From UHGV virus genome UHGV-0208172: a stretch of 45,009 nt of DNA; one strand, written 5' to 3'. Source of the stretch: a virus. The first letter of the stretch is position 1. Each line of letters begins with the position of its first letter. Shown piece after piece: positions 20,711 to 22,097 of the stretch. A program made the position numbers and the translations under genes. The notes under the pieces are model-generated. The model was not told the DNA's origin. It searched no databases and saw only the letters and a list, made by a program, of their open reading frames with translations.

Positions 20711-21015
20711 TGATTGACGTATATATCTATTGGAGCGGGATAGCTTTTAATTTTACCCTTGCCGCTGGGGTTCTTTGGTTGCTTTGGCGCTGGGTGCTGT
20801 TCCCTGCCGTAGAAGCGGCAAGCATGGTGCGGTACTACCGAAGAATCGGAAAAGTGCACGGGATTAAAGTGCACAACTGGTTCAGGCTCTTCCTCGCTAA
20901 CTACGAATTGTTTGGGCGCACGTTCACAGCGCAGCGGTGCGCCTACGGCCACTGGGAAGGGGTAGGGCGTTGGGAGGTATTTCCTGCGGAGGCTGAAAAT
21001 GAGCCTTGCAACTGA
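20665..21015 (+). CDS. hypothetical membrane protein (likely start ATG 20710)
   Basis: One predicted TM helix IAFNFTLAAGVLWLLWRWVLF. Confidence 0.45.
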   Translation: MRELWVSYTCGRGGVMIDVYIYWSGIAFNFTLAAGVLWLLWRWVLFPAVEAASMVRYYRRIGKVHGIKVHNWFRLFLANYELFGRTFTAQRCAYGHWEGVGRWEVFPAEAENEPCN

Positions 21016-21292
21016 CATCCTGAAACGAAGCGGCCTTGCGCCGCTGTCGCCGAGAGCTAAAACACAGATATGCAAGCGCAGGGGTAACGCGCTGTACCTT
21101 GAAATTCAGGCCAGGCGCAAAGCGGTCCGCGCCTGTGGATTCCAGAACGGGAAGGCCGTGAATCTCGGTGAGTTTAAGACACAGGAACGCGCCACAATCG
21201 CAAACCGGTTATTTAATTACTGGAAATCGCTGGGGTATGATGATATTCCGACGAAACCACAGAGACGACAGTACATCTGGAGACACAAATGA
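20999..21292 (+). CDS. basic hypothetical protein, possible nucleic-acid binding
   Basis: 97 aa, Arg/Lys-rich; RBS GGAGG; directly upstream of HslV-like gene. Confidence 0.5.
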   Translation: MSLATDILKRSGLAPLSPRAKTQICKRRGNALYLEIQARRKAVRACGFQNGKAVNLGEFKTQERATIANRLFNYWKSLGYDDIPTKPQRRQYIWRHK

Positions 21293-21729
21293 CTACTATC
21301 GCATTTGACGGAAAGACAATGGCCTGTGACACCCGTGTTGTGTGCGGGAGTAACTGTTACAACACAGACACTAAGATATACGAGAATGATTTCGCTGTTA
21401 TTGGTGTGGCTGGTGATGCGGGGGTTGGAATCCTTTTAGTGAAGGACGATAGTATTTTAGTGCCTAAGCATTACGACTTCGATTTCGAAGCCCTGGTGTT
21501 CGTGAAAGACACAGAAAAGGTGTACAAAGTCGCGTTTTATAAATCATGGGATTGTGCTCTTAGTTCGGTTATTCCGATTGCGGACAGTTTTGCCGCCGTT
21601 GGTTCCGGTTCGCCTTATGCACTGGCGGCTATGGAATGCGAATATTCGGCACATGGTGGCGTAGCCGTTGCATCGAAGTTCGACACTAACACCGGTGGCA
21701 AGATTATTACCAAACAACTATTAGGATAA
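21289..21729 (+). CDS. proteasome beta-subunit / HslV-like N-terminal nucleophile hydrolase
   Basis: 146 aa; N-terminus MTTIAF (Thr2 as potential nucleophile), conserved Lys region, GSGS..ALAAME near C-terminus as in HslV/proteasome beta. Confidence 0.65.
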   Translation: MTTIAFDGKTMACDTRVVCGSNCYNTDTKIYENDFAVIGVAGDAGVGILLVKDDSILVPKHYDFDFEALVFVKDTEKVYKVAFYKSWDCALSSVIPIADSFAAVGSGSPYALAAMECEYSAHGGVAVASKFDTNTGGKIITKQLLG

Positions 21730-21788
21730 TTCCTAACCGTGCTATCCTCCAGTTACTGCATACTTAATACGCACCTGGAGGATTCATC

Positions 21789-22097
21789 TTGGATAAATTT
21801 ACTGAAACAGTGACAGGCTGGCTTCTGGCTGCCGCACTAGCCGGTGGGGTAATCGGGCTAAGGCAACATAAGTCCTCTATTTCCGGCCCTATCGACGGAT
21901 TCTGCTTTATAGCAACCGGCTTCACCTGCGCCGTATTTGGCGCACCTCTTGCCGCTCAATGGTTCGGTATTACCGGCGAACGTGAAATCGCCGGCCTCGG
22001 CTTCATTATCGCTATTCTCTGGATGCCTATCTATTCCCGCCTCTCCGGTATCGTCGCCGGAGAATACATCTCACGTCAAGGAGGCACAGATGAATGA
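21789..22097 (+). CDS. holin (three predicted TM helices), TTG start
   Basis: 102 aa; GGAGGA RBS 8 nt before TTG; hydrophobic segments; immediately upstream of endolysin. Confidence 0.6.
   Translation: MDKFTETVTGWLLAAALAGGVIGLRQHKSSISGPIDGFCFIATGFTCAVFGAPLAAQWFGITGEREIAGLGFIIAILWMPIYSRLSGIVAGEYISRQGGTDE

Follow-up and report, generated by a model that had tools for sequence, protein, structure and literature searches.

The window analysed here, a stretch of 45,009 nucleotides of the virus genome UHGV-0208172, carries a gene whose 146-residue product belongs to the PPH family of proteasome homologs and adopts the alpha-beta-beta-alpha Ntn/proteasome fold in a confident predicted structure. 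The full catalytic residue set was recognised in the translated sequence, the gene is under purifying selection, and it is accessory, being absent from about two-thirds of close Kagunavirus relatives. Taken as a whole, these observations are probably explained by a PPH subunit with a complete catalytic apparatus, a putative threonine peptidase that would work without HslU and provide a conditional benefit. An earlier note made from the letters of the window had interpreted the ORF as an HslV/proteasome-beta-like N-terminal nucleophile hydrolase, and this interpretation was supported by profile, fold and catalytic residues. Features of the locus are listed in Table 1.

Table 1. Position of the PPH gene, its predicted functional elements and its upstream neighbour in the window; residue counts refer to 260 distant full-length members.
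Feature	Position	Strand	Basis or conservation
PPH-family proteasome homolog gene	21289..21729	+	146 aa plus stop
GGAG Shine-Dalgarno and ATGA stop/start overlap	21279..21292	+	Sequence
Thr2 codon (ACT), predicted nucleophile Thr1 after Met removal	21292..21294	+	Thr 254/260, Ser 5/260
Asp14 codon (proteasome Asp17)	21328..21330	+	Asp 257/260, Glu 3/260
Lys29 codon (proteasome Lys33; Lys of DTKIY)	21373..21375	+	253/260
Gly42 codon (oxyanion-hole Gly47)	21412..21414	+	253/260; end of strand E36-42 in model
Residual H1 (46-51, 6 residues) then loop, no H2 (residues 46-65)	21424..21483	+	DSSP of AF2 model
Gly105-Ser106-Gly107 (proteasome Ser129 / HslV GSGG)	21601..21609	+	G105, G107 260/260; S106 246/260, Thr 10/260
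Asp132 codon in FDxxTG motif (proteasome Asp166)	21682..21684	+	250/260
97-aa basic protein (PHROG 9632)	20999..21292	+	pI 10.8; PHROG 9632 E 2e-52; no assigned function

The ORF is genuine, starts with ATG and encodes an acidic protein (pI 4.7) with the sequence MTTIAFDGKTMACDTRVVCGSNCYNTDTKIYE...AVGSGSPYALAAMECEY...KQLLG. The sequence features listed in the earlier note, namely the MTTI start, the Lys-containing DTKIY segment and the GSGS motif, were all found in this product. The ATG and the upstream ORF's TGA share bases as ATGA, with GGAG ahead of them at 21279-21282, an arrangement that would couple PPH translation to the upstream gene. The GC content of 21289-21729 was 0.46, against 0.51 for the window and 0.52 and 0.54 for the flanking kilobases, and this lower value would fit a mobile accessory cassette.

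Searches with the single sequence gave only marginal matches in the PDB, Pfam and NCBIfam, and the fold could be settled only with a family profile and a structure: the Pfam Proteasome model (PF00227) was matched over residues 98-121 only, with 19.5 bits against a gathering threshold of 22.4, and the best proteasome-type match of phmmer against the PDB had an E value of 0.035. The decisive match came from a phage-specific library, in which PHROG 1040 ('peptidase HslV family') was aligned to residues 1-143 with E 4e-35. When 1.84 billion cluster representatives were searched exhaustively, 888 clusters were obtained at E<=1e-3, nearly all of 135-160 aa and aligned from residue 1. When a 117-member family profile was compared with solved chains, HslV was matched with E 2e-9 to 7e-7, BPH with 1.5e-8 and proteasome beta5 with about 3e-7. 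The AlphaFold2 (AF2) model built from the family alignment was compact and confident (mean pLDDT 93.9, pTM 0.88), and its top Foldseek matches in the PDB were all proteasome-like, including Staphylococcus aureus HslV (E 3e-7) and Thiobacillus denitrificans BPH (TMq 0.75); structure searching also found the same fold in many predicted phage proteins. The earlier note had been prepared to give up its reading if no significant match to the Ntn fold appeared, and such matches were obtained by both profile and Foldseek.

Secondary structure was assigned to the model by DSSP as strands E3-6, E10-14, E16-19, E22-25, E30-32, E36-42, E66-72, E77-85, E90-96, E102-105 and E139-143 and helices H46-51, H108-116 and H121-131. 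The H3/H4 pair is thus intact, and a single short helix takes the place of H1 and H2 of HslV: the model contains no helix between H46-51 and strand E66-72, and profile-PDB alignments placed a 13-residue gap relative to HslV within residues 46-65. The C-terminal S12/H5 is likewise missing, since strand 139-143 is followed by three residues to the end. Two matches of unusual length were recorded. The best viral structural match in BFVD, A0A1W6DWU9, has 263 aa, nearly twice the length of a PPH, with 56% identity over 131 columns, and this length could mean that the gene is fused to its neighbour, or that the ORF of a related phage was called too long. A protein of 2655 aa (P0376) contains five stretches matching query residues 7-33 (an N-terminal segment of 27) with E 4e-7; it could be built of repeats, or the match could be spurious and due to composition.

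Residue conservation was counted in 260 distant full-length members, using proteasome numbering after Fuchs et al. 2021 and HslV alignments, and column conservation was determined in alignments of 68 and 117 members, in which those from outside the query's clade were 30-35% identical to it. Judged by these alignments, the complete catalytic set (Thr2, Asp14, Lys29, Gly42, Ser106 and Asp132) is present. The nucleophile Thr and the Lys, whose lack of conservation would have told against the earlier note, were kept in nearly all members, and the Ser/Gly positions were likewise conserved (Table 1). Lys29 was invariant in three family alignments and Asp14 nearly invariant in two of them; Gly105-Ser106-Gly107 was aligned with the HslV GSGG motif in profile-PDB alignments, and residue 135 was Thr, Ser or Cys in 259 of the 260 members. 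Invariant columns in both the 68- and the 117-member alignment were M1, I4, A5, K29, G105, G107, A111 and A114, and those conserved to at least 90% included T2, T3, D7, G8, D14, G42, A103, S106, L112, A113, M115, D132 and G136. Met stood immediately ahead of the nucleophile in 256 of 260 members, which indicates that there is no propeptide. Within Kagunavirus, pairwise dN/dS was 0.11-0.22, demonstrating purifying selection on the gene.

These values bear on the proposal that the protein is a decaying or catalytically dead remnant acting only as a scaffold. The gene is dispensable and often lost, and its GC content (0.46) is below that of its surroundings (0.51-0.54), as might be expected of such a remnant; however, the low dN/dS, the retention of all catalytic residues in the window copy and, among 260 distant relatives, in at least 246, and the confident, compact AF2 model make this explanation very improbable.

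Fuchs et al. 2021 placed PPH in group I together with HslV, BPH, AAH and CPH, closest to BPH and HslV, and described subunits of about 140 residues from Caudovirales phages and proteobacterial prophages that keep the Thr1/Asp17/Lys33 triad and Gly47, start with Met-Thr without a propeptide, and lack helix H2 and the C-terminal S12/H5. The protein encoded in the window has 146 aa (median 147 aa in the 260 distant homologs), comes from a Kagunavirus-like siphophage and has homologs in 313 phage records, with distant members on phage-like contigs; it keeps Thr2, Asp14, Lys29 and Gly42 without a propeptide, lacks H2 and S12/H5 in the AF2 model, and shows sequence affinity to BPH and HslV, not to Anbu or WPH. 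Its alpha-beta-beta-alpha sandwich and N-terminal nucleophile place it in the proteasome-like branch of the Ntn hydrolases. By these matching features the protein is assigned to the PPH family, of which WP_042125023.1 is the representative in that paper.

A typical PPH (P0134; model pLDDT 96.2) has H1 at residues 43-54 followed by short turns, with no real H2. Compared with it, the Guernseyvirinae protein has an H1 of 6 residues instead of 12, with a 12-column deletion at this site, a longer beta hairpin (residues 77-96), and GSG(S/A)PY in place of the PPH consensus GSGRDF. The Guernseyvirinae PPH is thus trimmed further still, in a family that is itself minimal.

The protein is neither HslV proper nor a proteasome beta subunit proper, as judged from model scores and architecture. 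The HslV equivalog models TIGR03692 and NF003964 gave 14.3 bits against a cutoff of 157.75 and 13.5 against 137, and the bacterial/archaeal beta-subunit models TIGR03690 and TIGR03634 gave 23.6 against 191.9 and 20.2 against 224. Compared with HslV (ClpQ), the phage protein shares about 20-27% identity and is 30 residues shorter, as the earlier note had pointed out in calling it smaller than bacterial HslV; H2 is absent and H1 truncated, two helices that in HslV line the pocket into which the HslU C-terminus fits, and no hslU lies beside the phage gene. BPH (PDB 5ovs, 5ovu) differs in its length of about 185-200 aa, in possessing H1 as well as H2, in its long, acidic pore loop, and in being cellular and not phage-encoded. 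Relative to the 20S proteasome beta subunit (PF00227), the phage protein has no propeptide, no alpha-subunit partner, no H2 and no H5; the annotated genes of the close relative Bas73 include no alpha subunit.

The earlier note had suggested that the phage subunit could hijack host HslU. In this reading it would take the place of host HslV on HslU, and the resulting hybrid would be an ATP-dependent protease whose choice of substrates is changed. HslV is indeed the closest or near-closest solved relative, the MTTI N-terminus and the GSG-x-PY motif are HslV-like, no unfoldase is encoded by the phage, and E. coli hosts encode HslU. The pocket of HslV that receives the HslU C-terminus is formed by residues 54 and 57 (H1), 79 and 80 (H2) and 114 (PMC6429459), and the AF2 model, with only 6 residues of H1 and no H2, is short of the helices that carry most of these positions. 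Hijacking of HslU is disfavoured because these pocket helices are truncated or absent; the equivalog scores of about 14 bits against cutoffs of 137-158 point the same way, as does the finding of Fuchs et al. 2021 that no AAA+ protein co-occurs with PPH. That study also found the gene context of PPH uninformative. Neither the closely related Bas73 genome nor four distant homolog neighbourhoods have an annotated AAA+ unfoldase. A hybrid with HslU, which might still form through another docking mode, is accordingly quite unlikely.

In the preferred explanation, a PPH peptidase independent of HslU, activation would begin with removal of Met1. E. coli HslV also starts MTTI, and methionine aminopeptidase exposes its Thr1; by analogy, host methionine aminopeptidase would remove Met1 from the phage protein, and since this frees Thr1, autocatalytic cleavage of a propeptide would not be needed. 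The freed amino group of Thr1 would serve as base and its side chain as nucleophile, giving a threonine peptidase. Subunits of the proteasome family are usually inactive as monomers, and self-assembly would most likely proceed through the retained H3/H4 face. That face joins the beta rings in proteasomes (Fuchs et al. 2021), and the loss of H2 and the shortening of H1 could alter or abolish ring assembly. The enzyme would probably do without host HslU and would act either on unstructured peptides or on just one or a few proteins of host or phage origin, and the outcome would be a conditional fitness benefit and not an essential step in replication, lysis or assembly.

Chemistry other than proteolysis was also considered: the protein could be a ligase or transpeptidase resembling connectase, or an amidase whose substrate is a small molecule or a modified peptide. 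Connectase shows that this fold can support ligation instead of proteolysis; the phage protein, however, does not have the S3/S4 insertion of connectase and stands much nearer to those members that are proteolytic, and non-proteolytic Ntn chemistry is judged improbable. A more specific version of the proteolytic explanation, put forward here as a speculative extension of low probability, is a self-sufficient viral mini-proteasome: a ring or open oligomer without an unfoldase, made together with lysis and late genes, that would selectively destroy a host protein of the immunity or stress-response type. If it were true, a host-strain-dependent advantage would explain the gain and loss of PPH between close relatives, and the protein would be the first functionally defined viral protease of the proteasome family and its smallest active member. 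PADLOC gave no defence-system match for PPH. Anti-defence-type Pfam matches were observed a few kilobases from PPH on two distant contigs, namely Acb2_Tad1_hairpin (L008, 508-906) and AcrVA2-like (L007, 9357-10376).

At the nucleotide level, this region of the window shares 87-91% identity with siphophages of E. coli and Raoultella in the genus Kagunavirus (Guernseyvirinae), such as vB-Eco-KMB36, RP180 and the BASEL phage Bas73. Homologs in related phages, which the earlier note had proposed to look for, were abundant: the 313 records obtained by tblastn are mostly Salmonella Jerseyvirus with about 64% identity, and distant copies, about 30% identical, are carried by Klebsiella Jedunavirus phages, IME346 among them. 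The lysis cassette was covered to at least 80% in 117 phage records and the PPH gene to at least 80% in only 37 (both at the nucleotide level); by organism name, the cassette was found in 104 Escherichia and 11 Kagunavirus records and the PPH gene in 30 and 3, respectively.

Phage Bas71 of the BASEL collection illustrates the PPH-less state. Its basic protein is 94% identical, the intergenic region and the holin start are identical, and almost exactly the PPH ORF is missing. The end of the upstream gene reads TGG AGA CAC AAA TGA in PPH-positive phages (window 21277-21292), creating GGAG and ATGA, and TGG CGT CAT AAA TAA in Bas71 (L005, about 2910-2925), the codons at this junction being synonymous. 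About 20 nt resembling the 3' end of PPH persist in Bas71, and this apparent remnant hints that PPH was lost from Bas71 by deletion and not gained by PPH-positive phages through insertion.

Because viable close relatives do without the gene, it cannot be essential to lysis, replication or capsid maturation, and candidate functions as an essential lysis factor and as the capsid protease were both rejected for this reason. A prohead protease active in capsid maturation might have been suspected because none is annotated in Bas73, where only scaffold and major head protein genes are found. PPH is nevertheless outside the head gene cluster and absent from most close relatives that share the structural module, and isolation of PPH-less Bas71 as a plaque-forming phage implies that capsids mature normally without it; no prohead protease is known to have a proteasome-like fold, and this function is extremely improbable.

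As stated in the earlier note, the gene lies just upstream of the lysis genes, being followed by a holin (PHROG 2359, E 1e-29) and an endolysin (Pfam Phage_lysozyme, E 7e-27). The order in Kagunavirus and Jerseyvirus is small ORFs without assigned function, the basic protein of 97 (or 121) aa, PPH, holin, holin and endolysin, followed by small ORFs including a NinH-like gene and then terminase, all on one strand, with the replication genes on the opposite strand. The earlier note had placed the gene in an early operon; with PPH through terminase on one strand and replication on the other, it could be co-transcribed with late genes as readily as with early ones. PPH would be translated by coupling to the upstream gene, within a transcription unit that would run on into holin, endolysin and terminase. 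Promoter and terminator scans around the gene gave counts no higher than in shuffled sequence.

This position raises the idea of a lysis-timing factor that processes the downstream holin, antiholin or endolysin. PPH stands immediately before the holin-holin-endolysin genes throughout Guernseyvirinae, and the same slot before the lysis genes is occupied in an unrelated lambdoid-like contig (L009, 5001-6204), in which a nin-like region (NinB, RecA_dep_nuc) is followed by PPH, a 77-aa holin-like gene, Phage_lysozyme and terminase. The slot ahead of the lysis cassette is, on the other hand, a common cargo site in lambdoid phages. Bas71 and about two-thirds of related records have the cassette, at about 91% nucleotide identity, without PPH, and PPH is not beside lysis genes in IME346 or in the distant contigs L006-L008, where it lies among small genes or beside a portal gene. 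Modulation of lysis is thus possible and cannot be required, and processing of lysis proteins as the function of PPH is considered unlikely.

The PPH finding is correct but rediscovers what was known: a paper of 2021 had named and modelled the family, PHROG 1040 carries its label, and GenBank product names exist, near-identical Kagunavirus and Jerseyvirus genes being already named 'peptidase HslV family'. Labels in many records include this name as well as 'ATP-dependent protease', 'nucleophile aminohydrolase' and 'N-terminal nucleophile hydrolase domain containing protein'. No experimental work on PPH or a phage HslV-like protein was found in the literature, in which the only paper was the bioinformatic one of 2021, and neither the phage 590B paper nor the BASEL paper mentions the gene. 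The additions made here are incremental and comprise the presence/absence polymorphism, the synonymous recoding of the junction, the extra truncation of H1 and the structural case against HslU docking. Bas73 (PPH-positive) and Bas71 (PPH-negative), both of which grow on E. coli K-12 derivatives, form a natural pair and a ready genetic system in which the function of a viral proteasome homolog is a tractable question; a subunit lacking H2 may or may not form a closed chamber.

The basic protein encoded next to PPH, whose basic character (pI 10.8) agrees with the earlier note, gave no Pfam or NCBIfam match; it also matches PHROG 4947, likewise without an assigned function, and we take it to resemble an AP2-type DNA-binding motif. 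Its C-terminal half (GKAVNLGEFKTQERATIANRLFNYWKSLGY) is kept in gp18 of Jerseyvirus wksl3 (E 2e-18), and the N-terminal half varies in length. A conserved two-gene module of basic protein and PPH was considered and rejected, since the gene upstream of PPH in IME346 is unrelated and Bas71 has retained the basic protein although it lacks PPH, which shows that this neighbour is not an obligate partner.

A conserved RNA hairpin was predicted between the PPH stop and the holin (window 21731-21793), with 9-bp stem arms at 21744-21752 and 21775-21783 and an energy of -18.4 kcal/mol (z -3.3 against shuffles). It has no T-run and is therefore not a terminator. Its 3' arm, CUGGAGGAU, contains the Shine-Dalgarno sequence of the holin, which starts with TTG at 21789, and the hairpin may control holin translation; its sequence is invariant in the window, in PPH-positive Bas73 and in PPH-negative Bas71.
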